DNA from: Thermoproteota archaeon
Lineage (GTDB): Archaea; Korarchaeota; Korarchaeia; Korarchaeales; Korarchaeaceae
Assembly: GCA_027491415.1 (NCBI GenBank)
Contig: JAOZFH010000008.1
Location: 1 to 49,724, forward strand
DNA length: 49,724 bases
Reading direction: 5' to 3'
The position numbers and the translations under genes were made by a program. Below the pieces are notes generated by a model. That model did not search any database and had not been told where the DNA came from. It saw only the letters and a list, made by a program, of their open reading frames with translations. This document shows positions 1,784 through 40,456 of this stretch, piece after piece; position 1 is the stretch's first letter; each line of letters opens with the position of its first letter.

Positions 1784-1831
1784 AAACTCCCCCCGACGCC
1801 CGAGTGGCGACTACCATACTTAATAACCTTT

Positions 1832-2311: not shown

Positions 2312-2373
2312 GAGGGCGACCGCATACCCGGGTATGCACATTCTTTAAGTTTCTGGATACGACAAGTGGCCAG

Positions 2374-17901: not shown

Positions 17902-18065
17902 CCCGCTCTGCTATCGTAACATCTGGGAAAAATACGTAAAGTTGACGGCCCCCGGGCAGTACGAGCTAGTGGCTTCTGTCGTCAGGCGAGCTGCCGGGCG
18001 GATGCGCCCCGCACGTGCCGAAATACCTATCTATACCCGTCGAGGAGGGTGGTCCGGAGGGTGGC

Positions 18066-19682: not shown

Positions 19683-19707
19683 AGGTAGTCGCCGAATACG
19701 CCACCCT

Positions 19708-20229: not shown

Positions 20230-20233
20230 TGTC

Positions 20234-22957: not shown

Positions 22958-23816
22958 GAGAGAGAAGGCCAACGTGTGGTTCACGGACCATCACACGGAA
23001 AACCTCACTCTCTCGTTCAGGGTCAAGGGCTTCCTCTGGTCGGAGAAGAGCAAGTACCAGAGAATAGACGTGCTAGACACGTACGAGTACGGCCGAATAC
23101 TGGTGTTGGACGGCCTGATCCAGTTAACGGAGCGGGACGAGTTCATCTACCACGAGATGCTGGTCCATCCGGCGATGATGACCCACCCCAGACCCCGGAG
23201 CGTGTTGATCGTGGGGGGAGGAGACGGCGGGGCGGCGAGAGAGGTTCTGAAGCACCCCACCGTCCGCAAGGTGGTTCAGGCAGAGCTGGACGAGAGGGTG
23301 GTGGAGGTCTCTAAGAGGTTCTTCCCCCAGCTCGCGGCGTCCTACTCGGACCCTAGGCACGAACTCGTGATAGCGGACGGGTACGAGTTCATGGGCCAGA
23401 CAGAGGAGCGGTTCGATGTGGTCATCGTCGACAGCACCGATCCGGTCGGCGAGGCGAGAAAGCTCTTCACGGGGGACTTCTACTCCAAGGTCAAGGGCGT
23501 CTTGGCTCAGGGCGGCATAGCCGTCGCCCAGGCTGAGACCCCCTTCCTCTACCCGCAGGTCACCAAGGGACTCTACGACGTCTTCAAGTCCGTGTTCGGG
23601 CACGTTAAGCTCTACCTAGCCTTCACGCCCACCTACCAGAGCGGGATGTGGGGGTTCGTGATGGGCTCCGACTCCCCCCTCGAGGTCGACCGGGACCTCC
23701 TCGAGGAGCGGTATGCAGAGAGGGAATTGAGGGGGTCCCTGAAGTTCTACAACCCCGGGGTCCACCTGGGCCTCGCCGAGCTGCCGAACTTCCTGAGAGA
23801 CCTCGTCTCTCGCTAG
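22938..23816 (+). CDS. speE: Polyamine aminopropyltransferase (spermidine synthase)
   Basis: SKYQRI, LVLDGLIQLTERDEFIYHEML, VLIVGGGDGG and IVDSTDP. Confidence 0.94.
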   Translation: MATPTAEREKANVWFTDHHTENLTLSFRVKGFLWSEKSKYQRIDVLDTYEYGRILVLDGLIQLTERDEFIYHEMLVHPAMMTHPRPRSVLIVGGGDGGAAREVLKHPTVRKVVQAELDERVVEVSKRFFPQLAASYSDPRHELVIADGYEFMGQTEERFDVVIVDSTDPVGEARKLFTGDFYSKVKGVLAQGGIAVAQAETPFLYPQVTKGLYDVFKSVFGHVKLYLAFTPTYQSGMWGFVMGSDSPLEVDRDLLEERYAERELRGSLKFYNPGVHLGLAELPNFLRDLVSR

Positions 23817-25678
23817 CCCCCCTCTAGGTTCTTAGAAGTCCACTGCCGGAGGTAGTGAGGCAGGTCTTCGTGGTACACGACCGTGGCCGTCTCCCTAACG
23901 AAGTCTGGGAGGAGGGAGAAGTAGGCTGGCCTGGCGTAACGGCTGTCCCCGAGCACGAACACGCCTGGCTCGTCTTGAGACCTTATGACCCTGCCCAGAG
24001 CCTGGGAGGCCCTTCGGAGCGCGGGAACCACGTAGGCAAGGTACCTTCCTCTCTCCCTTCCGTGCTCCTTCTCTCTGAACTCGAGCAGGAGCCTGGTCCT
24101 GGTGTTCATTCGATCGAAGGGTATCCCAACCAAGTAGACTCCTACCAGCTCCCTCCCCGGGAAGTCAGCTCCCTCGCTGAACCTCCCGCCCATTGGGGCA
24201 AGCAGGACCGCGGGGCTCTCGGTCTCGGCGGCGCCCTTGAACTCCTCAAGCACCCTCCGGGCCTCGTCCCCGCTCATGTCCTCTCTCTCCACGAAGAGAG
24301 GTCTGCCGAGCCTCGCGCAGGCCTCCGAGACGCCGTCAATTATCTCGCCCTGAATCCTGTAGCTGGCGGTGAACACCGCGACGTTCCCCGGAACGTTCTC
24401 CAAGAAGTCTGAGACGGAATCCACGTAGGCTTCGGCCATGCCGGGCGGTAGCGACTCGCCCCTAGTGGTGAGGTCTCTGGTGATGAAGGACTCCACCCTC
24501 TCTGGATCTACCTCGGAGGGCACGTTGGCGGGGGCGCACGAGTCTAGGCCGACGGCCTCTGCGAAGGCGTCTACCGGGGCGAGGGTGCCGGACATGAATA
24601 TCCTGGCGTAAAACCTGGGCCAGATTTTGGAGAGAAACTCCCTGGCCCGCATGTCCCAGGCCTCGAACTCCAGGCGATCCCGCGCCCTCGAGACTATGAA
24701 GGCCACCCCTTCCACTCCTGCAAGCCTGAGGCACTTCTCGAGGAACTCTCCCAAGTGGTGCAGAGACGACCTGGGCGCCTTCCCTTCGGCGGCCCTCAAC
24801 CTCTGGACCTGGTTACCAAGCTTGATGATGCTGGCGACGTCCTCCTCCTCGAGCCCGCCCGCCGCCAGGAGGTCTAGGGGGTAGAAGACCCCGTCCTCAT
24901 CTATTTTCTGGCCCACTCTCCTCATCTCGAGCAGGATCGATCCGAGACTCTCGAGCAGGCCCTCCTCCTCGGGGAAGTACTCTCTAACCTCGTCGATCGC
25001 CCTCTCCACCGTGGTGGTGGTCACTTTCTCCGAGTTTATCGACATGGCGGCTCCCTCGATGTTGTGGGCCTCGTCCACCACGAGGATAGACTTGCTGAAG
25101 GGCATGATCCTCCTTATTGCCCAGCCAGCCGGTCCCAAGATGTAGTTGTAGCTTAGGGCCACCAGCGTGGCATCTCTCAGGGCCAAGAACTGCAGGTAGT
25201 ATGGGCACATCCTCCTTTCCGCCGACACCCTCATCAGCTCCGAGAATGTCAGCGGCCTGTCGGTCAGGCCCTCCAGTGGGCGAACCCTCCTGTAGTACAC
25301 GCACGTCTCCCTTTTCAGGCGACAGAGGTTTTCGACGGCCCTGTAGTCCCTGATCCCCCTCTCCCTCGCAAGCAGGCACATGTCCCTCTTGCCCCGGAGC
25401 GAGAGTCCGAAGGGCCCCTTACCCCAGCTCTTCCACACGGCCGTCAGCTCCTCTATTGGCCTGTCCGTCTCGTTTCCCGTCCTGACCGCCCAGATGATCC
25501 TCAGGTCGGAGCCCTCCACCTGGTCGAGAAGGGCCGCAAGGACCACCGGGGTCTTGCCGAACCCCGTCGGCGCCTGGATGCATATGTTGGCTCCCCTCCT
25601 CAGGTTGGCCGCTATGAACTCGATCAGTTCGACTTGGCGCTTTCTCGGCCTGTATGGAAAGTATTTGAGGCGGCTCAT
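23813..25678 (-). CDS. xpd: XPD/Rad3/DinG family Fe-S DNA helicase
   Basis: APTGFGKT Walker A, four-Cys Fe-S region, DEAHN, SGTL, SEGADF and QALGRVIRS. Confidence 0.9.
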   Translation of the reverse strand: MSRLKYFPYRPRKRQVELIEFIAANLRRGANICIQAPTGFGKTPVVLAALLDQVEGSDLRIIWAVRTGNETDRPIEELTAVWKSWGKGPFGLSLRGKRDMCLLARERGIRDYRAVENLCRLKRETCVYYRRVRPLEGLTDRPLTFSELMRVSAERRMCPYYLQFLALRDATLVALSYNYILGPAGWAIRRIMPFSKSILVVDEAHNIEGAAMSINSEKVTTTTVERAIDEVREYFPEEEGLLESLGSILLEMRRVGQKIDEDGVFYPLDLLAAGGLEEEDVASIIKLGNQVQRLRAAEGKAPRSSLHHLGEFLEKCLRLAGVEGVAFIVSRARDRLEFEAWDMRAREFLSKIWPRFYARIFMSGTLAPVDAFAEAVGLDSCAPANVPSEVDPERVESFITRDLTTRGESLPPGMAEAYVDSVSDFLENVPGNVAVFTASYRIQGEIIDGVSEACARLGRPLFVEREDMSGDEARRVLEEFKGAAETESPAVLLAPMGGRFSEGADFPGRELVGVYLVGIPFDRMNTRTRLLLEFREKEHGRERGRYLAYVVPALRRASQALGRVIRSQDEPGVFVLGDSRYARPAYFSLLPDFVRETATVVYHEDLPHYLRQWTSKNLEGG

Positions 25679-26910
25679 TGACCTCCACGTTCTCCCACGC
25701 GAGTTACGTGATAAATGGTGGGCGACCCAGAAAGGGAGACCAACCTTCTTCCCATAACTCTCCGGGTCTCAACCAGCCCAAGCTCCTCTAATATGTCGAC
25801 GTTCCTCTTGACGGTCTCGGTCGAGACGCCAAGCCTGTCCGCTAAGAGCCTTATGGGTTGGGGCCCCTCCCTCTCAAGGAGAACTAAGATGTTCCTCCGA
25901 GTTGAATTGCGCAAGGCCACGCGCACCGCGGCGTCCCTCCTCCTGCCCGGCAGAAAGTAGATCCGCTCCCCCAAGATCTCTTCCGACGTGATCAAACCGG
26001 CCCTTTCCATTACCCCCAAGTGATGCTTGAGCGTGCTGCGTGGGATCTGAAGCTGATCGCTGAGCTCGGACACGCTGGCGGCCCCCACATCGTCCAGGAG
26101 GGAGAGGAGTACTGCCCTGATAGGGTGGGATAAAACACCGGATTTGGGAACCCTCTTGACTCTCTGCGGCTGGTGAACCTGCCTCCGCCTGCTGAACGTT
26201 GCTCTCAGGGAGCCCAAGACTACAAGCCCAGCCAGCGAGACCGCGATGAATTCAGGTGGGATTGCGGCGCCTGAAGAAAGATGGTCAGTCAGGACTGCGA
26301 TCACCGTCAAGAGAGGGTCGGGCTCTTCTAGAGCCCACTCACTGAGGTTAGCCGACACCAATACGATCGGTGGGTCTTTCTCGATCAGCATGACCGCGGG
26401 AACTCCATCGTCATATGTGTACACCACCTCCACGCCTGCGGCAGAAACCATCCCCCTCTCAACCCCAGGGGGAATTGTCAGCGTCGGAAGTCCCTCGTCT
26501 TGCCTAAATGGTATGAGTTTCGCGCCCCCGTTGGTATCGTAGGTGCCCCTCAACTGGGCAGGGAGATTTGTAATCTTACCCATCATTTCGATGCCAACGA
26601 ATATTGGGCAGTTTAGGGAGGAAGGGGGGGTCCCGCCGACCAAAATCAGCGCGGCGTCTTGCCTCCCATGTCGAGGAGACCCGGCGTCCAAGACTACTAC
26701 TCCAGAAGTCCCGTTTGCAGAGGCGAGACTCTCCAGTACCTCGTCAGCCGCATATACCCAGACGAGCAATTTGCCCTCAGCGCCGGACGAGGCGGCGGTT
26801 TCTGGGATATACGCCAACAGGAAGAGAGTGAGGCTTGTTAGTACAAGCAGCTGGACCCTCCATCGCTGAATTCTGGGAGGAGGCTTCATTCGCTTTTCAG
26901 ATTTGCCCAT
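25675..26910 (-). CDS. Membrane-anchored transcriptional regulator: signal peptide, extracellular domain, TM, two tandem ArsR-like wHTH
   Basis: N-terminal hydrophobic signal; TM FIAVSLAGLVVLGSL; then HPIRAVLL..SELS..RSTLKHHLGVMERAGLI and NSTRRNIL..LADRLGVSTETVKRNVDILEELGLV. Start may be ATG 26889. Confidence 0.75.
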   Translation of the reverse strand: MGKSEKRMKPPPRIQRWRVQLLVLTSLTLFLLAYIPETAASSGAEGKLLVWVYAADEVLESLASANGTSGVVVLDAGSPRHGRQDAALILVGGTPPSSLNCPIFVGIEMMGKITNLPAQLRGTYDTNGGAKLIPFRQDEGLPTLTIPPGVERGMVSAAGVEVVYTYDDGVPAVMLIEKDPPIVLVSANLSEWALEEPDPLLTVIAVLTDHLSSGAAIPPEFIAVSLAGLVVLGSLRATFSRRRQVHQPQRVKRVPKSGVLSHPIRAVLLSLLDDVGAASVSELSDQLQIPRSTLKHHLGVMERAGLITSEEILGERIYFLPGRRRDAAVRVALRNSTRRNILVLLEREGPQPIRLLADRLGVSTETVKRNVDILEELGLVETRRVMGRRLVSLSGSPTIYHVTRVGERGGQ

Positions 26911-26922
26911 GGAGGATCTTTG

Positions 26923-26935
26923 TTATACCTTTTTT
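26923..26935 (-). promoter_or_regulatory. BRE/TATA promoter element for the double-wHTH regulator/xpd unit
   Basis: AAAAAAGGTATAA on the minus strand just upstream of the start. Confidence 0.55.
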
Positions 26936-27000
26936 GGTGCCGCAGGCCGCTAGGATTGCGCTGAGGAGATCTAGTTCTATGCAAAAGGTTAGCCCTCCGA

Positions 27001-27453
27001 TTATTCCCAAGTCAGCCCCCGGATTCTCACGTATCCCGACCTCTCCAGCCGCAGCAAAGCTGAGGTTATAGCAAAGGGAGTAACCCCCCACTCCCCCGCC
27101 AGTTCAGCTGGTCTGAGGGCTCCTCGTTCGGCCAAGTAGGCGAGGAGCCTTTTTTCTAGATCTGACAAGCCAGCGGAGTCGACTGCCTCCGGCAGAACCT
27201 CGGCCATTAGGCGGTACCTCGACGGCATGGGGGGGAGTACCTCCGAGTGGTAGTACGAGAGAGAGGTGAGCACACCGGCCAGCACGGCCAGAGAAGCCGC
27301 CAGCGCTTCCTGCCTGGGAGTTAGAATTGGGGACAGGACCGTTATTACGAGGAGTGACACTACTGTTATTGCCAGACCGAGCTCGACGGCGGCCATCGTC
27401 CTCCTTCTCTTTCTCCTATCCAGGGCCTCTTCTAGCCCGATAACGGCGCTCAC
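27001..27453 (-). CDS. Two-TM membrane protein with C-terminal wHTH
   Basis: Two hydrophobic helices, then LSDLEKRLLAYL..PAELAGEWGVTPFAITSALLRLERSGYV. GTGA overlap with the giant gene. Confidence 0.72.
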   Translation of the reverse strand: MSAVIGLEEALDRRKRRRTMAAVELGLAITVVSLLVITVLSPILTPRQEALAASLAVLAGVLTSLSYYHSEVLPPMPSRYRLMAEVLPEAVDSAGLSDLEKRLLAYLAERGALRPAELAGEWGVTPFAITSALLRLERSGYVRIRGLTWE

Positions 27454-30400
27454 TTCAGCTCACCCTCCCCTTCGAGGATCGTGGGCGAGAGCAGCAGAAC
27501 CTCCAGCCCGAGTTCGCGGGCCACGGAGGCTGCCAGCAAATCAGAAAGGACCACGGCCGTAGCCCCATGGGTGACCGCCGCTATCAGGTTTGTGGCGGAC
27601 TCCAGGCTCATTCCCGTGGTCCTCGCGAGCATGAGGGCCTGAACGAGGGCGCCCTCCTCCAAATCGTGCACCTCCACCGTGCCCCTTCTTATGAGGTCGG
27701 CCAGCGTCGGGCCGACCGCTGAGTCGGCCAGCAGGTCGTCGGTGGTTGTGCGAGTCACGAGGGCCAGCTCTCTCACGCCAGAGAGGCTTCCAGGGCCCCC
27801 CGTGAGGATCGTAAAGCGAATTGAGTGCGAGTCGTAGAGCACGAGCCTTCGCCTCCTGAGTCCTAGAGACAGCAGAAGAAAAGCCAGCATGGGGAGGGCG
27901 GAGGCGCCTCCCATGGCGGCCGTTAGGAAGGTGGGAGGCACCCTTACCACGCTGGAGGCCATCAAACCGAACTCTGGGAGCTCTGCCACGTTGATAACGT
28001 CACCAGCCAAGCCCGGTGGAAGCTTGACCAAGTAGGTGACGGTCGCCGGCGAGCCCGCCCGCGCGAGCCTTAAGACGATCCTCAGGGCGTTCTTATTTGG
28101 CTCCCTCGACGCGTACTCCGCCCCGGATGTTGAGACGCTCTCAGGCAGGAGCGCCGCGGCGTCTGGGAGTCTATCGACAACCACGACGTCCACCGGCCCA
28201 CCGCGCACATAGACCGAGACCGTGTACCTGATCGTCTGGTTTCCAAGGTACGTGCCCACCTTGCTGATCACTGGGCCCGGCGTCGGCGGGGGTCGCACGC
28301 CTATCCTGTACGTCGCCGTATAGTTCTGGGTGTACGCCACGTTGATGAGGGACCCTCCCGCCCCCGCCGTCACCACCGCGTGGAAGACCGCGGCGAAGGC
28401 CCTTCCAGGCGGGAGTTCGGACACCTTCCAGACAAGTCGGCCCGGCGCGGTTTGGTGGGGGGGTGGACTGGCCGAACCCTCGACGAAGGTCAGCCCCACC
28501 GGGAGGACATCTACCAGGGTAAGGTTGGCGGCAGAGCCGTTGCCCACATTTGTCAATACGATCCTGCAGCTGACAACATCTCCTATAGCCACCTCTGCTG
28601 GCGAGCACTCCTTGGATATCGAGAGCTTGGCCAATTCAACAGGTCTCGCAGGGGACACCTCGGGCGCCGGTCCCGGGGGCCTGACGATGACCACCGGAGC
28701 CCTAGCAACCACCTCTCCGCCGTAGAGAACGACGTTGTACACGATGTCAGATCCGACGGGGAGGGAGGAGACCGTCGCGCTGAAGGACAGGATCCACTCG
28801 CCGCCCGGGGGGAGGGGCGGAAGGGTCCACCTGAGGATCGAGCCTGAGGTCTCGGGCTCGACGGAGACCCCGTTCACGCTTGAGGAGCCGGTCACATATG
28901 TCAGCTCCTCCGGAAGCTCGTCCTCCAAGATAATGATCCCGCTCCCAGATCCCCCAACGTTCCTCACGGTGATCGTGAAGGTCACCGCATCTCCCAGGGA
29001 TGCGACGCCTGGTTCAGCATACTTGGAGAACGTCAGTTCGGGCGGGGCGGGAGGTCTCGCGCCCTCGCACGTGAGGTTGGGCTCCAGCAGCGTGGCCTTG
29101 ACGAGGTACGTCCCATTCACCGCCTCGAGCAAGGGAACTTGGACTCCGCCCACCACAGGCACGACGGTGAAGTTAGCCGTGACGTAGTACTCCGGTACCC
29201 CCTTGGCGAGCGGATCTGGCCTCCAGGGACCGACCCAGGTCTCACCGGGTGAGATCGCCTCGCCGATTGCGTAGCAGGAGATCGGCTCGCCATCGGGCGG
29301 GGGGGACCCCCTCCACACGCACACCTCCGTCAGGTTGTAGATGAGACCTCTAGCCAGGTTCGTGAAGCTGGCCCTCACAGAGTAGCCCTCCTCGGACAAG
29401 TTCTTCTCCACATCCAGCGCCGCCGGCCCAACGGCGTGGACGCCCCTTATTCGGTGGAGAAGCAGCGCGTCATCTCTCCTGAAGGTGAGGGACCCCTGTG
29501 GGAACTGCTCGGCACCGGTCAACCTGGCTGAGCCGGTTATGACGAGTTCTATGGTCTCTCCTAGGTCGACATCCCCTATGTCCCACTCTATCGAGTCTGT
29601 TGAGAGGCTAACCGACCCTCCGGTCGAGGTGACCGATCCGGGGGTGAACCAGGCCGGGATAGGCTTCAGGAGGCTCACGTTTCTGAGCCGGTCGGTGAAC
29701 CGGAGGGTTATCCGGAGCGTGAGGTTCGTTGACTCGCCGCAGGCTGGGGTGAAGGGCGTGACCGTCTCAAGGGCCGACACCGGCGGAGTCAGAAGACCCG
29801 GATCCACCTCGTACCTCCATCTCCGATAGTCTCCCGGCCTGAGTTCCGGTACGTGGAGGGGCGGGGAGACTGGCGAGTCGCTTGGGGTAGGGTAGTCGGG
29901 GTAGAACTCCATCCCGACAGAGTCCAGTCGAATCCATATGTCTGAGACGACGTCGCCGGTCGGATTGGAGACCGTCAGGAATCCCCAGACCCTCCTGACC
30001 TCGTAGGTCGAGTCCGGGTAGAGCACGATGTCGACGAACTCAGAGGCCGATATGTTCAGGTAGCTCTCCGTCGGGTCAACTCCCAGGGTAAAGGCCTCGA
30101 ACAGGTTGTAGTCCACCAATCCACAGGCAGACGACCTGAGGGTGTAGGTGATGAGCTGGCTGGAGTCGGGGGACCCAGACGGGCCGAGGTCGACCGACCA
30201 CCAGTACACGCCGCCGGAATTTCCCTGGTATGGGGGCGAGGGTGACTCGATCAGCATGTTCGCCGGAACGATGTCGTACACCCTCACCCCAGGCGCAGGC
30301 GTCGGATTCCAGTTGGTGACGTTCAGCGTGACCTCGTAGTAGCAGGGGGCCGTCGGGGTGAGGGACTTCCCCACGGAGACATTCAGCCTCACCTCTCCTA

Positions 30401-33400: not shown

Positions 33401-36400
33401 CCATGTCCGCCTGAACCGTCGCAGAGAGGTTGCACCAGATCAGGTTGTCGATGTAAGCCCAAGTCTTGTACCAGTCGTCCGAGTAGGTGTGCACAGTAAA
33501 GTTGACGCGGATCGTCTGCCCCGCGTAAGGCGTGAGATCGTAGTCCGTCGCTATCCACCAGCCGGAGTCTGCGAAGGTCCCGTAGGAATACCCCACATTT
33601 GGGTTGTATACCAATATCGTGTCCAGCGTGTTACCGGCCAGGTCTCTGATAGTCACGACGAGGTAGTCGAAATACGACGAGTCCCAAGACTCGACCCTGA
33701 ACCAGAAGGTGAGGTTTCCTCCCCCGCTCGGGACGGCTATCTCATATGCAGCCCACGTGTCCTCGCCGGTGGCCGTGTAGTCCTCAGACACGTTAACCCT
33801 GTACCCGAGGACAAGCGAGTAGTTCCCCACGGCTGGCAGGCCGTCGTCCACGATGAATCGAGGGTTCGGAGGGGGGGATCCGAGGGTTCCGCCGTCGATC
33901 GTGTAGGGCCCCCTGGGGCTAGCCTGTATGATCGACGAGATCCCGGCTGGGGATTGCCCGTAGAGCCAGTAAGACAGATCCCCTAGGTCCACCCCGGTGT
34001 TCAGCGTGTTGTAGACGGGCTTGGCGCCGTTCTCCAAGATGTCGAAGTAGACGTAGAAGGTCTCCTGCGCGGTCAGGTCGTTTGGGAGCAGGAACTTGAT
34101 TATCCCGGTTCCCCGGCCGGTCGGTATGTACTCCTGCTTGGGAACCAGGCTCCCGCTCGGGTCGACCACTCTCACCGAGTTGTTGTCGAAGGTCCCTGAG
34201 ACGTTCAGGTCGGTCAGGAGGTCCGTGAAGTTGACCTCCACGACGACCATCTGATACTGGTAGCCCGCGGGCACCGTGATGGGAACCCTGTAGTGCCAGT
34301 CGTCGCCGGAGTTGGGACCGTCGGGGTCCCACCACTCGGGGACGCCGTAGATAACGTAGTAGTACCTGTTAGGGTCGTCGTAGAATACGAGGGTGGAGCC
34401 CCTCTGGTACCAGATCTCTACCTTGCGAGTCTCGTTTCCCAGGGCCAGAACCTCCTTCACTACAGCCCCAGGCGGCAGATCGACCGTTATCCGCCTCCAC
34501 TCTCCGTCACTCTTGTTGGCCAGCTCCACAAGGATCTTGCCCGGGGAGAGGAGGACCTGCCTGGAGGGCGGCGCGGCCGGGGCACCGTTCAGGAGGGCCT
34601 CCACTATCGCCATGCCCGCGGAGTCAAACCAGAACTCCTCGCCGGAGACCTCGAAGTCGGCGCCCCTCCAGTGAACCGTGACGTGCTTGGCCTTGAGGCC
34701 AATCCTATGGGACCCCGGCCGCCTAACCTCCAGCCAACGGACCAGCCACGTGCCGTCCTCCCCCTTGGCCTCGAACTCAGACAGGACCTTTACCAGGGCA
34801 GGTTTCTTTGGCTGCTTCGGCGCCTTCTCGGGGGCGGGAATCCCGGAGACGCCAACGCCCCCCCTCCCGGAGGGGCCGCGCTCTTGGGAGGGCGGAAGCT
34901 CCAAAACGATGATCAGTGAGACCTTCCCGTCGCTCCGGCCGTCGGGGTCTCCTGAGCCTCCGTCGCTGAGGGAGAGCGTCCTTCCCCCCACCCCATACCG
35001 CGCTCTGAGGGGTGCCCCGTCCGTCCCCACTACAACGAGGACCCCCTCCACGCCGGAAAGTCTGATTTCGGCGGAGAAGCCGGGCTCTCCCTCGAGAGTG
35101 AGCAGTAGGCCGACCACGTTGTCGCGCCCTCCCCAGGGGCCCTCAGGCGGTTCGACGACCCGCGCGTCAGAGATGCAGGCCCCCTCAGCCGCCAGCGAGG
35201 CCCCTCCAACCGACATCACCGGCGAGCACGGCCCAGGCGGCTGCCTCACCGCGATGACGCATGATTCGGACGCGCGAAGGCCACCCAGGGTGGCGCTTAC
35301 CTCCAGCGTGTAGTTCCCGGGCTCCAGCGGGCCGAGGGGTAGGGTGAAGTTGCCCGGCGCGGGCGCCGAGAGGGCTCCCCGGAGAGCCTCCTCACCGCCC
35401 CGGCCCCTGAGCGCGTACTCAACGGAAGCGTTGCCGGGCGGGGCGCCGGAAAGGAGCAGACCGACCTCGACCGAGACCTCCTCGCCTGAGGGGAACTCGA
35501 CCACCTCAGGGAGTCGGATCCCGAGGGTGGCGTTCGGAGAGGGCGCGCCGGGCGTGAGGACTACGAACCCCTCGGCTCTGGCCGAGAGGCCGCGCCAGGT
35601 GGCCAGCACCGAGAAAGAGTAGTTCCCGGGTGGGAGGTCCGGCAGCGTCAGCGCGGCCAGCCCGTCTTCTGTCGTCCCGGAGGCGGAGAAGTTCGCGGGG
35701 CCCGTGAGGGTGAGATTCACGCCCGCTCCAGACAGAGGTCCAGCAGCGACGGCCTTGACGCTCACCATGGCCAGCCCGACCGACGCGTTCAACCCCACGT
35801 TCAGAACGTCAACCCACAGCGGGACTTCCGCAATCCCGACGGCCCCCGCCCTCCACCCACGGGCGAGGAGGTCGTACCTCCCGAGTTCGACGACGCTCGT
35901 CAGGGGATACTCCGCCAGCCAGGTCGACTCGTTCACATAGACTGGGTCCAGCCGGATGACCCTCCCCCCGGGCGTGACCAAGGACACGTTGACACCCTCG
36001 AGGGACACGTTCGCGGTTATCCAAGCTGAGATGGACTCACCAGGAGCGTATGCGTTCCTTTGGAGGTGTATCCTGAGCTCAACCTTGGGTGAGGGGACCG
36101 TCGCCAGCAACTCTGTGCTCCCGACTATGCCCCTGGAGTCGACGGCCCGGAGATCCAGACTGTACGTCCCGGGCATCCAGGGCTCGAAGCTGACGTTGGT
36201 GGATCCAGAGACCGGAACATCCGTCAGCGCCATAGACGCGTTGTCTGGGCCGACGACGACGAGCGAAACGTTGGCCTCTACGGGCCTCCCGGTCAGGGCG
36301 CTCTCGACACTCACGGCGACCGTGCAGACATCCCACCTGCACGACCAGTCCGCTGAGAGGAGGATCGAGTCGACCGTGAAGTTGGCGACGGCCTCCAGCT

Positions 36401-36773
36401 CTCCGACCTCGGCCCTCAGGTAGTAGATCCCAAGGGGGATTGGCGAGATCAGGGGGAGTGGAAAGCTGAGGATCCAGGTCCCGTCTACCTCGCGCAGGTA
36501 GGCCGAGAGGTTGATCGTACGGTTGTTGGGTGTTATCAGCAGCACGGTGGGGCTGGGGGCCCCCTGGAGAGAGAGGTTGGCCGTCACGTTCTCCCAGGGG
36601 TTGAGGTAGTCCCTAGCCAGCACAATCGAGATGCCCTCGCCTCGGGCCGCGGTCGGGGTCGGAGGGCTGAACTCCTGGGCTCTCGCGGCCTCGGCCGAGC
36701 GCAGGCTCGGATGAGCCGCGGCTATTACGAGAGCCGCCAGCAGCAGACCTGCGAACTCGGCCGACGGCCTCAC
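27450..36773 (-). CDS. Giant (3107 aa) cell-surface adhesin-like protein with DUF11/isopeptide-type repeats, TM and C-terminal PIN-like domain
   Basis: Signal peptide; Ig/MG-like repeats; DUF2341-like WWD..WHYRVPI; choice-of-anchor-X-like LYDDGTHGDAVAGDGIF; beta-helix region (about 30850-31600); permuted subunit domains; three DUF11-like repeats; TM plus RRRR; cytoplasmic tail. Confidence 0.85.
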   Translation of the reverse strand: MRPSAEFAGLLLAALVIAAAHPSLRSAEAARAQEFSPPTPTAARGEGISIVLARDYLNPWENVTANLSLQGAPSPTVLLITPNNRTINLSAYLREVDGTWILSFPLPLISPIPLGIYYLRAEVGELEAVANFTVDSILLSADWSCRWDVCTVAVSVESALTGRPVEANVSLVVVGPDNASMALTDVPVSGSTNVSFEPWMPGTYSLDLRAVDSRGIVGSTELLATVPSPKVELRIHLQRNAYAPGESISAWITANVSLEGVNVSLVTPGGRVIRLDPVYVNESTWLAEYPLTSVVELGRYDLLARGWRAGAVGIAEVPLWVDVLNVGLNASVGLAMVSVKAVAAGPLSGAGVNLTLTGPANFSASGTTEDGLAALTLPDLPPGNYSFSVLATWRGLSARAEGFVVLTPGAPSPNATLGIRLPEVVEFPSGEEVSVEVGLLLSGAPPGNASVEYALRGRGGEEALRGALSAPAPGNFTLPLGPLEPGNYTLEVSATLGGLRASESCVIAVRQPPGPCSPVMSVGGASLAAEGACISDARVVEPPEGPWGGRDNVVGLLLTLEGEPGFSAEIRLSGVEGVLVVVGTDGAPLRARYGVGGRTLSLSDGGSGDPDGRSDGKVSLIIVLELPPSQERGPSGRGGVGVSGIPAPEKAPKQPKKPALVKVLSEFEAKGEDGTWLVRWLEVRRPGSHRIGLKAKHVTVHWRGADFEVSGEEFWFDSAGMAIVEALLNGAPAAPPSRQVLLSPGKILVELANKSDGEWRRITVDLPPGAVVKEVLALGNETRKVEIWYQRGSTLVFYDDPNRYYYVIYGVPEWWDPDGPNSGDDWHYRVPITVPAGYQYQMVVVEVNFTDLLTDLNVSGTFDNNSVRVVDPSGSLVPKQEYIPTGRGTGIIKFLLPNDLTAQETFYVYFDILENGAKPVYNTLNTGVDLGDLSYWLYGQSPAGISSIIQASPRGPYTIDGGTLGSPPPNPRFIVDDGLPAVGNYSLVLGYRVNVSEDYTATGEDTWAAYEIAVPSGGGNLTFWFRVESWDSSYFDYLVVTIRDLAGNTLDTILVYNPNVGYSYGTFADSGWWIATDYDLTPYAGQTIRVNFTVHTYSDDWYKTWAYIDNLIWCNLSATVQADMVEGFGVNLTEPRGLQTFGPLKVVARVDAAPTGGVLARVYDPSGALVSSAALYDDGTHGDAVAGDGIFTNDNVYSISPGDRLGDWRIVVLANDSSASILSPSYDGLIHIPGRPDEVNYTDFFNVDELTFEVRANLSGIVFEDEWPLASGFSPGVDLPVSGVRVGLFLDNGDGSFDPLTDPLVRVTETSSAGGYSFLARNDTYWIAVDSRTVTSPRGLNAGRDWVETWAEGTYVVSWDGAAHTGSPDFGGRDPEVSDACSLEVVLYDGFETWAGWSDYGLGTVYQSDEQAYEGSFSLKKDSRNDPNGGYKPVGGTVGRGVILQGYTYRPSPWSGGARDRIGLEDPSFNGYTFTVDHLLGRIWIDRRDGGDPTRISARVSWDPPENEWYFWKMIFFANGTIAFQVYDLSGDLLAQVRATDTTYTSFDRIVVHGGYEYYVDELTLWRPGTRCEHVSLVSAGDYLGESLDFGFSFDVVVNTLDVDHDPSNPRVAQGTLRQFLLNANAISGGDRSWFVFMTPQNVQPDPEHSWWRIDVNPSLGQLPTITDAGTQVNGTVFTPSLSVNDANPGVYGPGGAVGSGPDGVPGTGDEFALPRYSLPEVAIYGQGLESDGLVIGAGPAKIANLSIYGFYSTYGSGGAIHVGSGATQVRIYGCFVGIRPDGRDPGTLGEERNVRLGILVEGDSTEILHSVISYNWGTGVHFTGSQVTSGLIQGCLIYSNGLKQVFDPTLPGGPDGTSVEGSAGGVVVRGNLIANNTCYGIDSWFSLGGMRVEENNITLNGWEPYQGEAGGVRLFGNHSVVSRNVIYSNYGGGVVVARTVPPPSWGSPGNALDNNLTQNSMFNNTGLGVDIDNTTLAGAGNPNGDHVTVNDGALNHGAPNLKVDYPVITFAAYNGTHVYVEGFVNSESAGSGSPEFAGATVEIFMVNNSQAGDNLDGNLYGSRYYGEGFIYLGSLVSDANGEFSGWIPVSSLPARLRPEAGSLLTGTTTLSAAGTSEFGPSARIGEVRLNVSVGKSLTPTAPCYYEVTLNVTNWNPTPAPGVRVYDIVPANMLIESPSPPYQGNSGGVYWWSVDLGPSGSPDSSQLITYTLRSSACGLVDYNLFEAFTLGVDPTESYLNISASEFVDIVLYPDSTYEVRRVWGFLTVSNPTGDVVSDIWIRLDSVGMEFYPDYPTPSDSPVSPPLHVPELRPGDYRRWRYEVDPGLLTPPVSALETVTPFTPACGESTNLTLRITLRFTDRLRNVSLLKPIPAWFTPGSVTSTGGSVSLSTDSIEWDIGDVDLGETIELVITGSARLTGAEQFPQGSLTFRRDDALLLHRIRGVHAVGPAALDVEKNLSEEGYSVRASFTNLARGLIYNLTEVCVWRGSPPPDGEPISCYAIGEAISPGETWVGPWRPDPLAKGVPEYYVTANFTVVPVVGGVQVPLLEAVNGTYLVKATLLEPNLTCEGARPPAPPELTFSKYAEPGVASLGDAVTFTITVRNVGGSGSGIIILEDELPEELTYVTGSSSVNGVSVEPETSGSILRWTLPPLPPGGEWILSFSATVSSLPVGSDIVYNVVLYGGEVVARAPVVIVRPPGPAPEVSPARPVELAKLSISKECSPAEVAIGDVVSCRIVLTNVGNGSAANLTLVDVLPVGLTFVEGSASPPPHQTAPGRLVWKVSELPPGRAFAAVFHAVVTAGAGGSLINVAYTQNYTATYRIGVRPPPTPGPVISKVGTYLGNQTIRYTVSVYVRGGPVDVVVVDRLPDAAALLPESVSTSGAEYASREPNKNALRIVLRLARAGSPATVTYLVKLPPGLAGDVINVAELPEFGLMASSVVRVPPTFLTAAMGGASALPMLAFLLLSLGLRRRRLVLYDSHSIRFTILTGGPGSLSGVRELALVTRTTTDDLLADSAVGPTLADLIRRGTVEVHDLEEGALVQALMLARTTGMSLESATNLIAAVTHGATAVVLSDLLAASVARELGLEVLLLSPTILEGEGELK

Positions 36774-36787
36774 GGTCTCTTCCCCCC

Positions 36788-37603
36788 TCAGGGTGGCCTC
36801 GCCCTTGGGGCGAGACGAGGCCTTCTACCCTCGGACCTCCTGAGGGCCCGAGAGGCGATTAAGACGAGCATGACCACTATCAAGGCCCCCCAAAAGACCA
36901 GGTATCCCTTGATGGGGAGCATGGGTAGTGGGAGGGGGCTGAACTCCACCCATACCCTCACCCTCCCGCCCTCGGGCAGCCCCGACAAGTCCCACTCCAC
37001 TGACTCGCCCCTAGACCCAGGGCCGGGTGAGGCGTAGGTCACCCTAGAACCGGCCGGAGGGAAGATGACCACCCTTCCCCTCTCGACCCTGTTGGAGATC
37101 GGCCCTATCCCAAAGGCGAACTCGTCAAACAGCACGCCGCGCGCCACTCCGTTCTCTATCCTGAAGGAGAGCTCGAAGGACTCCCTCTGACCCGGTCTGA
37201 GGGGCTGCCACAGGGAGTAGCGGAGAACCAGGGAACCGTTCTCCCAGAGCGGGACGACCTCCATGTCGACGTTCCTAGTCAGATCCCTCGCCGAGAGGAC
37301 GGTCACCGAGAGGTTGACCCTCCTCTGGCCGGGCAGCGGGAGGCCGCCAGCGCTCCTCTGCCTGATCCCCGAGACGGGCAGCTTCCCGTACCCGGGCACC
37401 ACCGGGACCCGGCCGTCGTTCCGCAGGGTGGCCCTCACCGTGACAGTCACCGCGCCGTCCTCCGAGACGCGCGCCGTCACCTCGAGCCTCTCGTACACCA
37501 GCGGATTGTACTCACCCTGCGCGCCGAGGGCGTGCAGGGTGGGGAGGCACAGGGCTATCACGAGCGCTGACGCGAAAAAAGCGTGGAGGGGACGGGAGGG
37601 CAT
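36788..37603 (-). CDS. Secreted, C-terminally membrane-anchored accessory protein of the surface cluster
   Basis: Signal peptide from ATG 37603, beta-rich body (VVPGYG), then EFSPLPLP..GYLVFW TM and a basic tail. Confidence 0.72.
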   Translation of the reverse strand: MPSRPLHAFFASALVIALCLPTLHALGAQGEYNPLVYERLEVTARVSEDGAVTVTVRATLRNDGRVPVVPGYGKLPVSGIRQRSAGGLPLPGQRRVNLSVTVLSARDLTRNVDMEVVPLWENGSLVLRYSLWQPLRPGQRESFELSFRIENGVARGVLFDEFAFGIGPISNRVERGRVVIFPPAGSRVTYASPGPGSRGESVEWDLSGLPEGGRVRVWVEFSPLPLPMLPIKGYLVFWGALIVVMLVLIASRALRRSEGRRPRLAPRARPP

Positions 37604-37635
37604 AGCCCGACGCCCCGCTCGTCGGGGAAAAAGGT

Positions 37636-39801
37636 TCACTGGGAGGGGGACTTCCTCCTCCTCTCGAGGAGGACCCCCACGACCACCAGGACGGCGACGG
37701 CGATGACCAGCCACTGCTCGAAGGTGGCCGCGCCGAACTCGACGCCCGCCGAGGGCATGAACACGGCGGTGGCATCCAGCGTGTTCCTGGGATCGACGCC
37801 CACCACGAAGATGTCGGTGAGGTTGTAATCGCCCTTGCCGATCACGCAGTAGTGGACAACCACAGGATTGTACACATCCATGTTGAGGTTCTCATAGGTC
37901 CCCTTGGCGGACACGACCACCCTCCCGGCGCCGGTGTCGAGGGTGTTCTGTACCCACGAGACGAGGAAGTCGGTTCCGCCGGCGGCTATGGTGCTGCCCT
38001 CGGCGTAGTTGGTTCCGTTGACGTTAATCGTGCTGCCGTCGACCGGATAGACGGTCCACTGCCTAGTAGACCCGTCGGCCAGCGTGACCGTGACCGTCTT
38101 AACGTTGGCCGCCCCGGGCCCGTCGAACCACTCCGCGAAACCCATCTGCGGTGCCGGAAGCGGGTAGGTCTTCCACAGGTATCCCTTCTGGTAGCCAGTG
38201 AGGCCGGTCACAACCTGGCTGTAGTCCGGCGGAGAGTTCGAGTCGGCGTCTTGGGCCAGCATTTCGATCGGGAAGAACATCATGCTCTCGTTGCTCGCGT
38301 CGCTCTCCTTTGCCATGAAGTTGAGTGGGATTAGGTCATAGAACTCGACGTAGGGCGTCATCCACTCCCCGGCGTTGTAGAGCTCGATCGTTATGCAGGT
38401 CATGTTGTTCACGGGCCCGGGCCTGACCTCCTTCTTCGCCTTGACCAAGTAGCCCCTGACCACCCAGATCATCTCCCTCACGATAAACTTGGACCTCCCG
38501 TCGGGCCCCACACCGACGGTCGTGTTGGTGTAGTTCATCCAGCCGTAGGTCTCGTCCCTCTCTATCCTAGCCCTGAACTCGGCCCAGACCTTCGGAACCG
38601 ATCCGGAGGAGAAGCTGAACGGGCCGTACTGATAGGAGGCGCTGGCCTCTCCCGGGCCTATGACAGCTATCGGAGAGCCGACCTGCTCATTCTCGGAGCC
38701 CGCTATTGGAGTGCCCTCAGGGTTCGCCGTGGTGGTGGCCCACAGCTTGGTGTAGACGATCTCGTAGTCGAAGGTCCCGCTCGTGTCGTACACCACAAGG
38801 GTCTCGTACCAGGTAGACGGAGTCGAGGTGTCCTGTTCCTTCTTGGCCTCGAAGTCGGCATCCCCCACCGCGTAAAGATAGCCCACGCGGCTTCCGCTTA
38901 TCGCCCTCGCAAGCGTGAACCTGAGGTAGATCGTTCCCATGTGGACCTTCTGGGTGCTTCCACCGACCTCTGAGAGGTCGGGAGTTCCCCTAACGACGAC
39001 TCCCGTGAGGTTCTCGTTGGAGTTCGCCGCCACGGTGAACCAGCCGTCCGGCCAGCTGCCGTCGCCCGTCCAGTTGAGCTGCTTTCCGTCGGTGGAGAGT
39101 CCAGACCCACCACTCGTGGGAGTGCCCGCTGAAGTGAACACCGGGTTGCCGGCGGCATCCCGCCAGCCGTCACTCGGCCCGTTGTCCGGGGGCAGGATCT
39201 TCCGGAGCTTGACGCTGACGTCCCACGGGAGATCGTTCACTACGGTTATGTTGATCTCGATGTCCTGAGTCTGCCCGTCCACTATCTTCTCGGGGTCTAT
39301 CGTCTCACTCACCCTTATCGGGGGGCAGGTCGAGATGGACGCTCCGTCGATGGAGTATGTTAGAACAACCCTGTCACCCGGCTGAAGTTCGGTTATGTGG
39401 ACCCAGTGCATGCTGTTCGCATCGCCGAATCCGCTGGAGGGGTAGGAGTTAAGGACCCATGAGGGTATCGAAGCCCCCGGGGCCGACACCTCAACGTAGG
39501 CGTAGGACGGCTTCTCTGACACGGACAGGGGGGTGAGATAGGTCAGGGTCGTGTCGAGCCAGATGGGGAGCCACACGTCGAACACCCTCTCCGTCGCCCC
39601 GTTGTATATCGTGACGTTGCCCGTGACGTTCCACGCCCCGCAGTCGTAGAAGAGGCCGTCGGTCTCCAGGGTGGCGTTAACGATCTCAGTCAGGTACACG
39701 CTCAGCGGCGCGTCTGGAGTCGCCTGCGAGACTTGAGAGGAGCCTGGGGCCACTAGGAGGGCAACCAGGAGGGCGACTCCGAGTACCCCTCTGCGATTCA
39801 T
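37636..39801 (-). CDS. Secreted beta-rich surface protein; candidate major fibre subunit (GVDP-linker-TM-RRRK C-terminus)
   Basis: Signal peptide MNRRGVLGVALLVALL after a GGTGG SD-like element; Thr/Gly/Asn-rich with several NxT/S sequons; C-terminal DIFVVGVDP...WLVIAVAVLVVVGVLLERRRK. Confidence 0.75.
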   Translation of the reverse strand: MNRRGVLGVALLVALLVAPGSSQVSQATPDAPLSVYLTEIVNATLETDGLFYDCGAWNVTGNVTIYNGATERVFDVWLPIWLDTTLTYLTPLSVSEKPSYAYVEVSAPGASIPSWVLNSYPSSGFGDANSMHWVHITELQPGDRVVLTYSIDGASISTCPPIRVSETIDPEKIVDGQTQDIEINITVVNDLPWDVSVKLRKILPPDNGPSDGWRDAAGNPVFTSAGTPTSGGSGLSTDGKQLNWTGDGSWPDGWFTVAANSNENLTGVVVRGTPDLSEVGGSTQKVHMGTIYLRFTLARAISGSRVGYLYAVGDADFEAKKEQDTSTPSTWYETLVVYDTSGTFDYEIVYTKLWATTTANPEGTPIAGSENEQVGSPIAVIGPGEASASYQYGPFSFSSGSVPKVWAEFRARIERDETYGWMNYTNTTVGVGPDGRSKFIVREMIWVVRGYLVKAKKEVRPGPVNNMTCITIELYNAGEWMTPYVEFYDLIPLNFMAKESDASNESMMFFPIEMLAQDADSNSPPDYSQVVTGLTGYQKGYLWKTYPLPAPQMGFAEWFDGPGAANVKTVTVTLADGSTRQWTVYPVDGSTINVNGTNYAEGSTIAAGGTDFLVSWVQNTLDTGAGRVVVSAKGTYENLNMDVYNPVVVHYCVIGKGDYNLTDIFVVGVDPRNTLDATAVFMPSAGVEFGAATFEQWLVIAVAVLVVVGVLLERRRKSPSQ

Positions 39802-40034
39802 GGTAACCACCTGACCACCACACAATATCAAGCATTTAGCTTGATATTGCACATCTTCACTTGTTATTTTCAGCGATCCGCCACATTAAAACGGTTGTAG
39901 CCGCCGCTCCAAACGACTCAACTAGGAAGCGATGAAACGTTTCCTCGAGGCCCACCTACCCCTCAGGTAAGCGCGTAGCTTAAGTGAAGCCGCCTAGTGA
40001 GTTTAAAAACCGTGGATGGGGGTGAGCGCCGCCC

Positions 40035-40406: not shown

Positions 40407-40456
40407 TGTAAGACCCCGCCTCCTCTCATGAGATATAAGCCTACCTGACCTCCCGC

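Follow-up and report, generated by a model that had tools for sequence, protein, structure and literature searches.

A Korarchaeal gene cluster for a candidate anchored surface module with membrane-bound regulators

The genes and their products

The window, i.e., the whole stretch of DNA analysed (49,724 nucleotides of contig JAOZFH010000008.1), carries on its minus strand five co-oriented genes, A to E, which are separated in the ORF calls by 32, 14, -4 and 90 nt (Table 1). An earlier, sequence-only reading had described this arrangement, and its strand, gaps, lengths, membrane segments and helix-turn-helix (HTH) domains were all borne out. The operon that it proposed stood in part: the five genes are indeed co-oriented and close, but a sixth co-oriented gene, which encodes an XPD/Rad3 helicase and overlaps E by 4 nt, had been overlooked, and the 90-nt gap between D and E holds a TATA-like element of E's own, so that a single five-gene transcript is a candidate only. 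A Pfam scan of the 39 ORFs in the window that reach 90 aa agreed with the earlier statement that pilins, assembly or secretion ATPases and sortases are absent from the window, and likewise returned no archaeosortase family and neither the PilB/FlaI-type assembly ATPase nor the PilC/FlaJ-type platform protein that would go with a fibre of the type IV pilus or archaellum kind.

Table 1. Features of the gene cluster in window coordinates
Feature	Position	Strand	Description
Gene A	37636..39801	-	721 aa, secreted, beta-rich, C-terminal membrane anchor; ORF and translation
A, residues 30-445	38467..39714	-	predicted mu-homology-domain-like double beta-sandwich head
A, residues 452-671	37789..38448	-	C-terminal beta domains, including the end domain common to giants
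A, residues ~694-716	37654..37722	-	membrane helix followed by RRRK tail; hydropathy scan, helix at 695-716 in the AF2 model
Gene B	36788..37603	-	271 aa; signal, ~200-aa beta ectodomain, C-terminal membrane segment
Gene C	27450-36773	-	3107 aa; ORF and translation
C, residues 1-800	34374..36773	-	variable head of the giant
C, residues 1240-2234	30072..33056	-	conserved giant core: LamG-like region, right-handed beta-helix, end domain
C, residues 2235-2949	27927..30071	-	A-like anchor module A': A-type N-domain and DUF11 repeats
C, residues 2950-3107	27453..27926	-	membrane segment, RRRR, 137-aa cytoplasmic PIN-like tail
Gene D	27001..27453	-	150 aa; two membrane segments, cytoplasmic MarR-like winged helix
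Gene E	25675..26910	-	411 aa; signal/TM, ectodomain, TM, two winged-helix domains
XPD/Rad3 helicase gene	23813-25678	-	sixth co-oriented gene
Segment absent from sister genome G004	27048..40004	.	12,957 bp, neighbours on both sides retained; contains A, B, C, most of D and the region upstream of A

The start of A was placed at the ATG used by its homologues; a GTG at 39852 is also open (738 aa). By hydropathy and translation the N-termini of A, B and C are ordinary hydrophobic ones, signal-like in A and B. Protein A, encoded by a single-copy gene, falls into the precomputed families PF27409 and PF27408, the second of which is also assigned to the G002 homologue of C. It has 29 close homologues, some of them labelled Korarchaeota by their sources, and its family comprises 113 representative clusters at E<=1e-3. 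Methanococcus aeolicus WP_011973776 is a relative, in line with the earlier suggestion that similar proteins occur in Methanococcales. Neither A nor B matched any known S-layer family or any Pfam or NCBIfam family, and pilin matches to A stayed at the aligner's background level. Nor does A resemble a known S-layer protein or enzyme, either of which would have told against the earlier proposal.

An AF2 model of A, of middling confidence (pLDDT 70.4, pTM 0.43), is all-beta with several complete-looking domains, keeps the membrane anchor and leaves unmodelled the conserved linker that follows the motif VGVDP (residues 667-671, 37789-37803, translation checked), with which the ectodomain closes. 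In this model the head of A is predicted to show the two-subdomain, banana-shaped beta fold of mu-homology type. The likeness to mu-homology domains (clathrin-adaptor mu, delta-COP, muniscins) lies in the predicted fold, without a Pfam Adap_comp_sub match; the head of A differs in carrying ~170 extra residues of insertions, in being extracellular rather than cytosolic, and in having no adaptor complex. The fold is uninformative on function. In B, a conserved LPLPxLPxxGYxxxWG motif runs into the C-terminal membrane segment.

The product of C matches DUF11 (7.6e-34), Beta_helix (3.8e-9) and choice-of-anchor X, and contains 59 N-glycosylation sequons. Its head is 42-55% identical to that of a same-genus homologue, compared with 63-83% for the rest of the protein, and is barely alignable across genera; on these alignments the giant is a fast-evolving surface protein, with the head as its least conserved part. 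Methanogens and other archaea encode adhesin-like giants built of DUF11, beta-helix and LamG repeats. Protein C is like these in domain vocabulary, sequons and variable head, and unlike them in having a defined end domain and in being encoded within a conserved module of several genes, together with anchored partners of its own.

The common end domain and the fused anchor

The conserved core of C closes in LGVDP (30072-30086, translation checked) and aligns by blastp with the giants of non-Korarchaeal loci at 33-39% identity (E down to 4e-175). These alignments stop at residue 2234 of C, which corresponds to the C-terminus of the non-Korarchaeal giants. The A-family HMM matches C beyond that point, at 2235-2284 and 2421-2487, and in L040, another Korarchaeote, A' is a stand-alone gene of 858 aa with its own signal peptide, located in a cluster without a giant and aligning to C 2241-3093 (E 5e-67). 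Because the giant alignments end at 2234 and A' is a separate gene elsewhere, a relation of the Rosetta-stone type, C is, on these alignments, a giant fused at LGVDP to the A-like anchor A'. The earlier description of C as a multi-domain adhesin is thus correct as to the multi-domain giant, but C is not simply an adhesin. In nine of nine long Korarchaeal homologues of C the internal G[VIL]DP is kept and none is found near the anchor. In this genome the giant is already anchored via A', which leaves the separate A without an obvious part and counts against the anchored complex proposed below.

The relatives of the core include precomputed NosD- and parallel-beta-helix-type families, with LamG-type domains on relatives, and transmembrane regulators adjoin the giant. 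Together with the Beta_helix match, this is what would be expected of a surface enzyme or substrate-capture protein, in which the core would act on polysaccharides or bind polymers for nutrient acquisition, with D and E responding to the substrate. Such a role is improbable, however: sequence searches gave neither a catalytic family nor a relative among solved enzymes, the Pfam scan showed no transporter or glycoside hydrolase within the module, and a variable head on a conserved stalk would better suit a binding protein.

Profile comparison (hhalign) of the last 230 aa of the giants with the A family gave a probability of 96.4 (E 1.4e-9), the alignment ending exactly at GxDP, so A and the giants have in common, by profile homology, an end domain whose last residues are G[VIL]DP. 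Outside Korarchaeota, no more than 5 aa follow this motif in 12 of 14 distinct complete giants; in A-family members of at least 550 aa it lies 42-77 aa from the C-terminus (89/96), and a family-wide alignment of 22 sequences has G.DP among only 19 invariant columns. The giants thus have the end domain only, A has both N-domain and end domain, and A' has the N-domain only.

This distribution of domains would also fit a head-to-tail fibre, a sharper form of the fibre put forward in the earlier reading, in which the end domain binds the N-domain of the next subunit or, once the Asp-Pro bond is cleaved, is linked to it covalently. With a donor end and no A-type N-domain, the giant would be the tip, A with both ends the shaft, the anchored A', an acceptor without G[VIL]DP, the base, and B an assembly or anchoring factor. 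The fusion in C puts the giant's end straight onto an A-type N-terminus, and the fixed spacing of motif, spacer, helix and basic tail in A resembles C-terminal sorting signals. The Asp-Pro is strictly invariant also in the giants, where the chain all but ends with it. This exceeds what a domain boundary would need and so points towards processing, which favours a fibre. Several observations argue the other way: a sortase-like or other processing enzyme is absent from the window, A gives only background pilin matches and is single-copy, and in this genome the tip would be fused directly to the base, with no room for a shaft. Donor-strand fibres (chaperone-usher-like, archaeal thread or bundling-pilus) consist of small subunits in which a strand of the neighbour fills an incomplete Ig fold; set beside these, A is a 721-aa protein with a membrane anchor and several complete-looking beta domains, and its linker after GVDP lies outside the modelled part. 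A fibre is therefore not the best reading and is rather unlikely, but it stays a live rival since the polarity of donor and acceptor domains matches the tip/shaft/base logic.

Two known systems bear on this question. Like A, the subunits of sortase-assembled Gram-positive pili are beta-sandwich proteins of 500-700 aa with a C-terminal motif, hydrophobic helix and basic tail, and their tip/shaft/base polarity is readable from the ends present, as it would be here from the sequences alone. Unlike LPXTG, which lies next to the helix, G[VIL]DP lies 20-25 aa before it, and the window has no sortase. Protein A was also considered as a sortase or archaeosortase substrate and rejected as such, there being no LPXTG/PGF-type motif before the helix and no cognate enzyme in the window. 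The second system is the FrpC module, an Asp-Pro clip-and-link in which the reactive aspartyl can link to an amine (PMC7078468). It resembles the giants and A in the invariant Asp-Pro bond that ends a secreted domain. However, the known reaction needs Ca2+ and a module downstream of the bond, whereas the giants end within 0-5 residues after the Asp-Pro and A has only the linker and membrane helix, which counts against a fibre.

Distribution and loss of the module

Genes A and B each occur in 21 of 43 Korarchaeota genomes, with an identical pattern by genus. Of 13 loci in relatives, 12 have the two genes next to each other, and so does the thirteenth (G035) by hhalign (E 3.6e-8); A, B and C are neighbours in every one of the 11 Korarchaeal loci whose sequence extends beyond B. 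Farther afield, 26 of 39 distant metagenome loci have A and B side by side, in some cases divergently oriented; in 12 of the 13 loci that lack B, the contig ends within 1 kb of A. Giants are present in 22 of the 39, 15 ORFs encode B' and 11 loci have D3, and in G065 A, B and a giant are consecutive. The co-location of the three secreted proteins, on which the earlier reading had let its proposal depend, holds in Korarchaea and, as A-B or A-B-giant, in distant archaea. The A family is present in only 5 of 61 diverse archaeal genomes. In G053 and L061 A is found alone, with no B or giant nearby, an observation that counts against the anchored complex proposed below.

The sister species genome G004, which is 96% complete, lacks A, B, C and most of D between the same flanking genes. 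When its region G004:C11:19001-29000 was compared with the window by blastn, the flanks showed 95-97% identity and D was reduced to its final 47 nt; the flanking XPD gene is still 97% identical, and E has decayed into a pseudogene broken into at least three frames. The module is sporadic, accessory and, given the deletion of A to D together with the decay of E, dispensable.

This pattern weighs against an S-layer or other obligatory envelope lattice, in which B would anchor A as the principal protein of the wall, like SlaB and SlaA of Sulfolobales. A is glycoprotein-like, beta-rich, C-terminally anchored and encoded beside a smaller anchored partner, which would suit such a lattice; but 22 of 43 Korarchaeota genomes, G004 among them, lack A and B, and another protein of this genome (G000), of 866 aa, matches Pfam S_layer_C (4.1e-24) and has relatives in 36 of 43 genomes, spread over all 10 genera. 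Patchy presence, deletion and the separate S_layer_C protein largely refute A as an S-layer protein, and the lattice is very improbable.

Cytoplasmic domains and the proposed complex

D and E are predicted transmembrane transcription regulators. In D, two hydrophobic segments, of which one is strong and the other weaker, precede a MarR_2 domain (3.6e-6). The N-terminal membrane region of D is matched by profile (hhalign probability 78, E 1.9e-5) to D3, a family from distant loci whose HMM has D as its sole genome-wide match in G000, and homologues of D come after C at six separate loci in Korarchaea. E combines a pair of hydrophobic segments with matches to HTH_20 (3e-19) and HTH_24 (1.4e-14); with homologues in only three other loci, it is lineage-specific. 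The earlier claim that membrane-anchored regulators belong to the system gains from the likeness of the membrane part of D to a module component and from the decay of E where A to D are deleted. ToxR/TcpP-type regulators (surveyed in PMC10269533) likewise combine membrane segments with a winged helix and lie beside plausible target genes; the HTH domains of D and E differ in being C-terminal and, in E, doubled, and the membrane part of D is common to proteins with a different cytoplasmic domain.

Protein C also reaches into the cell, with a membrane segment at ~2950-2970 (hydropathy) and the tail beyond it. This tail has no Pfam match at E<=10, and its link to PIN proteins is transitive: its profile matches the tail of the second giant of G000 (hhalign probability 96, E 3.9e-9), which is matched by the B'-tail profile (E 3.6e-9), which in turn matches a bona fide PIN protein of G000 (probability 84.6, E 6.8e-6, 43 columns); direct profile comparison of the C tail with the PIN protein gave E 0.025. 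A tail of this kind tethered below a giant, with the same architecture on the second giant of the genome, could belong to a surface sensor with a toxic or regulatory output (e.g., in defence or kin contact), in which perturbation of the giant's ectodomain would activate the PIN-like nuclease or the winged-helix regulators. Patchy distribution, recent loss and the co-decay of E would suit it. However, A to D have no match among the PADLOC defence families, the module is not set among mobile elements or tRNA genes, and acidic positions expected from PIN motifs vary among the tails when read by eye, which suggests a scaffold; a sensor of this kind is quite improbable.

Another point of comparison is offered by the WxL/Csc clusters of Lactobacillales and Bacillales, in which small and giant proteins have one common C-terminal domain and a membrane-anchored partner. 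The module is like them in the common end domain, the anchored partner, the accessory nature of the cluster and the variable large protein. It is unlike them in showing no WxL, DUF916 or DUF3324 match (Pfam E<=10 for A and B, E<=0.01 for C), in its archaeal host, with no peptidoglycan to bind, in the membrane anchor of the smaller protein A, and in the attached cytoplasmic PIN-like and HTH domains.

Taken together, the five genes are the Korarchaeal form of an archaeal gene module that has so far gone undescribed; it could well encode an anchored display-and-signalling complex, which is the best, if tentative, explanation. A surface location of A, B and C is suggested by their signals, by the membrane anchor that each retains and by the sequons in C, and a cytoplasmic coupling by the HTH domains of D and E, the PIN-like tail homology, the D-D3 match and the co-decay of E. 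In the complex proposed, A would contribute its mu-homology-like head, end domain, conserved linker, membrane helix and basic tail, B a small beta ectodomain carried by a conserved membrane helix, and the giant a secreted LamG/beta-helix protein whose last domain is the same end domain as in A. A' would be an A-like anchor without the motif and with the PIN-like tail, and D a two-helix membrane protein; in this genome both D and E carry predicted winged-helix DNA-binding domains. The end domain would dock head-to-tail onto the N-domain of A-type proteins, through which a membrane platform of A, A' and B would retain the giant, presumably adhesive, on the cell, while D, E and the PIN-like tail may couple the state of the complex to gene expression. 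On this reading, the membrane-anchored proteins of the module probably keep a giant, fast-evolving surface protein attached to the cell and signal to regulators in the cytoplasm.

The five-gene module and its surroundings

The sequence-only reading had described five co-oriented, closely spaced genes, here named A to E, and open reading frames, translation, hydropathy and domain matches bear out their arrangement and lengths, with intergenic gaps of 32 (A-B), 14 (B-C), -4 (C-D) and 90 nt (D-E). The start that gives A its full length is the one used by its homologues and is preceded by a GGTGG-like element. By hydropathy, A, B and C each have an N-terminal signal and a C-terminal membrane segment, D has one strong and one weaker membrane segment, and E has two. 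Pfam and NCBIfam scans returned no family match for A or B, and placed in C, D and E the domains listed in the table. The helix-turn-helix (HTH) matches in D and E, taken with their membrane segments, likewise uphold the earlier description of both as membrane-bound winged-helix regulators; they fit the transmembrane transcription regulator class (survey, PMC10269533), and a TATA-like element of E's own lies in the 90-nt gap upstream. The same reading had seen no pilin, assembly ATPase or sortase in the window, and a scan of its 39 ORFs of at least 90 aa agrees, with no pilin, secretion ATPase or sortase among them. The stop of E overlaps by 4 nt with an XPD/Rad3 helicase gene, a point absent from that account; despite this overlap the helicase probably stands outside the module, because it is intact (97% identity) in G004, a same-genus genome in which E has decayed.

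The remaining 29 of the scanned ORFs were housekeeping genes or unmatched, the window contains no tRNAs, and PADLOC reported no defence family matching A to D. The sequencing runs listed include no RNA run and only three DNA runs of one study with small shares. The ORF upstream of A probably encodes a protein shorter than listed, ~125-137 aa long and with several membrane passes; its G004 copy begins near an MPAFGVG stretch. Elsewhere in the window are three adjoining genes with matches to components of a sugar phosphotransferase system (PTS), a kind of system that is uncommon in archaea, an enzyme-regulator fusion that joins a PLP-dependent enzyme domain to a C-terminal winged helix, and a secreted-looking CARDB protein followed by two small ORFs without a family match, which may be another small surface-protein cluster.

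Positions of the module genes and of other features discussed (window coordinates unless a genome and contig are named)
Feature	Position	Strand	Length	Matches or content
A	37636-39801	-	721 aa	
B	36788-37603	-	271 aa	
C	27450-36773	-	3107 aa	DUF11, Beta_helix, choice-of-anchor X
D	27001-27453	-	150 aa	MarR-type HTH
E	25675-26910	-	411 aa	two ArsR/MarR-type HTH domains
Helicase gene	23813-25678	-		rad3 TIGR00604 (9.6e-70)
LamG-like stretch of C (residues ~1400-1580)	~32030-32570	-		
ORF upstream of A	40035-40721	-	228 aa as listed	
PTS genes	14-2341	-		EIIC-GAT (1.5e-84), IIB (6e-11), EIIA-2 (2.1e-30)
Enzyme-regulator fusion	7943-9325	+	461 aa	PALP (1.8e-55), PadR-type winged helix (4e-13)
CARDB protein and two ORFs	18015-20797	+	555, 173, 188 aa	CARDB
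Second giant	G000:C4:25866-34463 (locus L113:3866-12460)	-	2864 aa	eleven DUF11 repeats
UPF0175 gene, then PIN gene	G000:C9:41219-42144 (locus L114)			UPF0175; PIN-TPR-GreABC/DUF3368
A in two pieces	G002:C5:83936-85967 (locus L019)			two separate open frames, covering residues 1-463 and 537-721

Occurrence, gene neighbourhood and loss

The window corresponds to contig C61 of genome G000, which measures 1.78 Mb and is 96% complete, and close homologues of A are labelled Candidatus Korarchaeum and Candidatus Methanodesulfokora by their sources. Profile searches found A in 21 of the 43 genomes of the phylum (16 of 25 of high quality, 5 of 10 genera), and B with identical numbers, the two differing in two fragmentary genomes only. 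The expectation that the three secreted proteins would be co-located across archaea was confirmed: by tblastn, B directly follows A in 12 of 13 relatives' loci, and wherever the sequence continues past B, in 11 loci, a C-like giant comes next. D follows C in six distinct loci, and E is found in only three others. Further afield, an exhaustive search with the A profile gave 113 representative clusters, 80 of them at E<=1e-10, with named members from a euryarchaeal MAG, from Methanococcus aeolicus (WP_011973776) and, in the Hydrothermarchaeota, from Candidatus Pyrohabitans; many metagenome contigs also carry relatives, and the A family occurs in only 5 of 61 diverse archaeal genomes. Two of the distant cases are a tiny-genome archaeon (G035), where A is followed by B (hhalign probability 95, E 3.6e-8), and a low-GC genome of 1.6 Mb (G065), in which A, B and a giant of 1463 aa are consecutive.

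Neighbours were counted in 39 metagenome loci with distant A relatives. A B-like gene adjoins A in 26 of them, sometimes with divergent transcription, and in 12 of the 13 loci without B the contig ends less than 1 kb from A; a giant protein of 1000-2600 aa is present in 22. Two further protein types recur there. One, called B' (15 ORFs), consists of a signal, an ectodomain, a Pro/Thr linker, a membrane helix and a cytoplasmic domain of ~110 aa; the other, D3, is a 180-aa two-helix membrane protein found in 11 of the 39 loci. The N-terminal membrane part of D resembles D3 (hhalign probability 78, E 1.9e-5), and D is the sole match when the D3 model is run against all ORFs of G000. Homology of B with B' was considered and dropped, being undetectable by hhalign (E 0.036), and their joint clustering arose only through fused or merged ORFs; no similarity was found between the ectodomains of E and B'.

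A natural deletion was found in G004, which is 96% complete and whose flanking proteins are 97-98% identical to those of the window. It lacks the 12,957 bp corresponding to window 27048-40004, i.e., A, B, C and all of D save the last 47 nt, with the same neighbours on either side; the ORF upstream of A is kept at the deletion edge. The E gene that remains is spread over at least three reading frames, with a 273-nt gap and a 5' half that is only 81% identical. The module is therefore dispensable and was lost through deletion, and E lost its function alongside it. In G002, another genome of the same genus, A lies in two pieces and the other four module genes seem intact; this A gene may be broken, or the assembly may be faulty. 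The possibility that A and B are an S-layer gene pair was rejected in view of the phyletic pattern, the G004 deletion and the presence in G000 of a separate, secreted S_layer_C protein (866 aa, Pfam 4.1e-24): the latter has relatives in every one of the ten genera and in 36 of the 43 genomes, and A and B are missing from 22 of the 43 Korarchaeota genomes. The available passages on Korarchaeum in the literature on its S-layer name no envelope protein.

The shared end domain, the fusion and the cytoplasmic tail

The alignments of C with distant giants span its residues 1240-2234 (33-39% identity, E down to 4e-175) and stop at residue 2234, which corresponds to the final residue of those giants. 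At this point C reads LGVDP (2230-2234), and G[VIL]DP, with no more than five residues after it, closes 12 of the 14 distinct giants whose C-termini are complete; an anchored A-family protein and a frameshifted gene are the exceptions. Over their last 80 residues the giants align with the A-family C-terminal domain, and this match closes exactly at the motif (probability 96.4, E 1.4e-9). In A itself the motif is VGVDP (667-671), and in 89 of the 96 A-family members of at least 550 aa it lies 42-77 residues from the C-terminus, followed in 81 of those 89 by a hydrophobic helix. Beyond 2234, C continues with a match to the A-family N-terminal part, then DUF11 repeats, a membrane segment and the tail, and in another Korarchaeote (locus L040) this A-like anchor, A', is a stand-alone 858-aa gene with its own signal peptide (E 5e-67 against C 2241-3093), in a cluster that runs A, B, A', D, E and lacks a giant. 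Judged from these alignments, C is a giant fused to an A-like anchor at the end-domain motif, since the giants align up to 2234, A' lies downstream and A' is a separate gene in L040. The motif is internal in all nine long Korarchaeal homologues of C and near the anchor in none, and stand-alone A' has no G[VIL]DP motif. PF27408, one of two precomputed Pfam domain entries for A (the other is PF27409), is also listed by the source database on a same-genus C homologue. The fastest-evolving part of the giant is its head. The LamG-like stretch of C, with a conserved run around YDGFETWAGW at its start, recurs twice at the N-terminus of a 980-aa A-family protein of Methanococcus aeolicus, and head domains seem to be exchanged between A-type and giant proteins.

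An AlphaFold2 model of A built from 23 homologues is all-beta (mean pLDDT 70.4, pTM 0.43), and the stretch after GVDP is unmodelled. In Foldseek it comes closest to the mu-homology domains found in subunits of clathrin adaptors and of COPI (best E 6.5e-8, with a target-normalised TM of at most 0.60), a fold otherwise known from eukaryotic adaptors. PDB sequence searches gave no match for A, the C tail or the C core, the protein Atlas no usable match for A (best score 0.76), and the literature searched no paper on an archaeal mu homology domain. That the head of A is a prokaryotic antecedent of the fold tied to eukaryotic vesicle adaptors is a long shot.

On the cytoplasmic side, Pfam gave no match for the 137-aa C tail, which was approached through successive profile comparisons. 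It resembles the tail of the second giant of G000 (probability 96, E 3.9e-9), the latter resembles the tails of B' (E 3.6e-9), and the B' tail profile matches over 43 columns a stand-alone G000 protein with a Pfam PIN call (probability 84.6, E 6.8e-6), whose gene follows a UPF0175 gene. By this transitive route the tail of C is provisionally termed PIN-like; by eye, the acidic positions expected of PIN motifs vary among the tail sequences. The UPF0175 and PIN genes are likely a toxin-antitoxin pair, used here only as a reference for the tails. At its C-terminal end the second giant has, like C, a membrane segment followed by the PIN-like tail, so giants with such a putative inner tail recur in this organism.

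Proposed display of giant proteins at the cell surface

The hypothesis favored here is that the module encodes a membrane display complex which would hold a giant adhesin-like protein on the cell; it is put forward tentatively, with somewhat less than an even chance of being right. It builds on the membrane or surface nature of all the proteins, the end domain common to A and the giants, the fusion of a giant to an A-type N-terminus precisely at the end of that domain, and the fast evolution of the giant's head. Together, the A-type anchors and B would make up a membrane platform; docking of the end domain on the A-type N-domain would keep the giant on the cell, and D, E and the PIN-like tail might link the complex to the cytoplasm for signalling.

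The sequence-only reading had instead proposed a non-type-IV fibre. In the form considered here, the giant would be the tip, A the shaft and A' the base. The polarity of the domains suits such an order, as the giant has the end domain only, A both domains and A' the N-domain only, and the Asp-Pro pair does not vary even in the giants, where it stands at the extreme C-terminus. The Asp-Pro 'clip-and-link' reaction of FrpC is a precedent (PMC7078468), but the FrpC catalytic module lies downstream of the bond, a part that the giants lack. The direct fusion of tip to base in this genome also speaks against a shaft, and the fibre is considered an unlikely but live alternative. Less probable still is a sortase-free, self-assembling covalent surface chain. 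The end-domain Asp-Pro would then be an autocatalytic 'clip' site whose aspartyl anhydride reacts with an amine in the A-type N-domain that comes next. In such a chain the giant, a donor only, would be linked to A, which is both acceptor and donor, and A in turn to the anchored A', an acceptor only; the giant-A' gene fusion would be a genetic mimic of the ligated product.

Among known systems, the WxL/Csc clusters of Gram-positive bacteria are the closest analogue in logic to the module; none of their defining families was matched in it. No description of the module was found in the literature searched on PF27408/PF27409, the archaeal mu homology domain and the Korarchaeum S-layer, and a search on MJ1393-MJ1397/AF2028 matched on 'AF2028' alone, with no archaeal title. 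Anchored display of giant surface proteins is known as such; the module adds an unusual predicted fold and an unexplained invariant motif.

How archaea without a wall polymer hold very large adhesin-like proteins on the cell is largely unknown, and the module offers a concrete candidate answer, made up of a common end domain closing in G[VIL]DP, A-type anchors and the small partner B, for which the natural fusion and the natural deletion serve as genetic controls. If the model of A is right, a mu-homology-like fold would be placed outside archaeal cells, and the predicted link between giant proteins at the surface and PIN-like and winged-helix domains in the cytoplasm hints at outside-in signalling.
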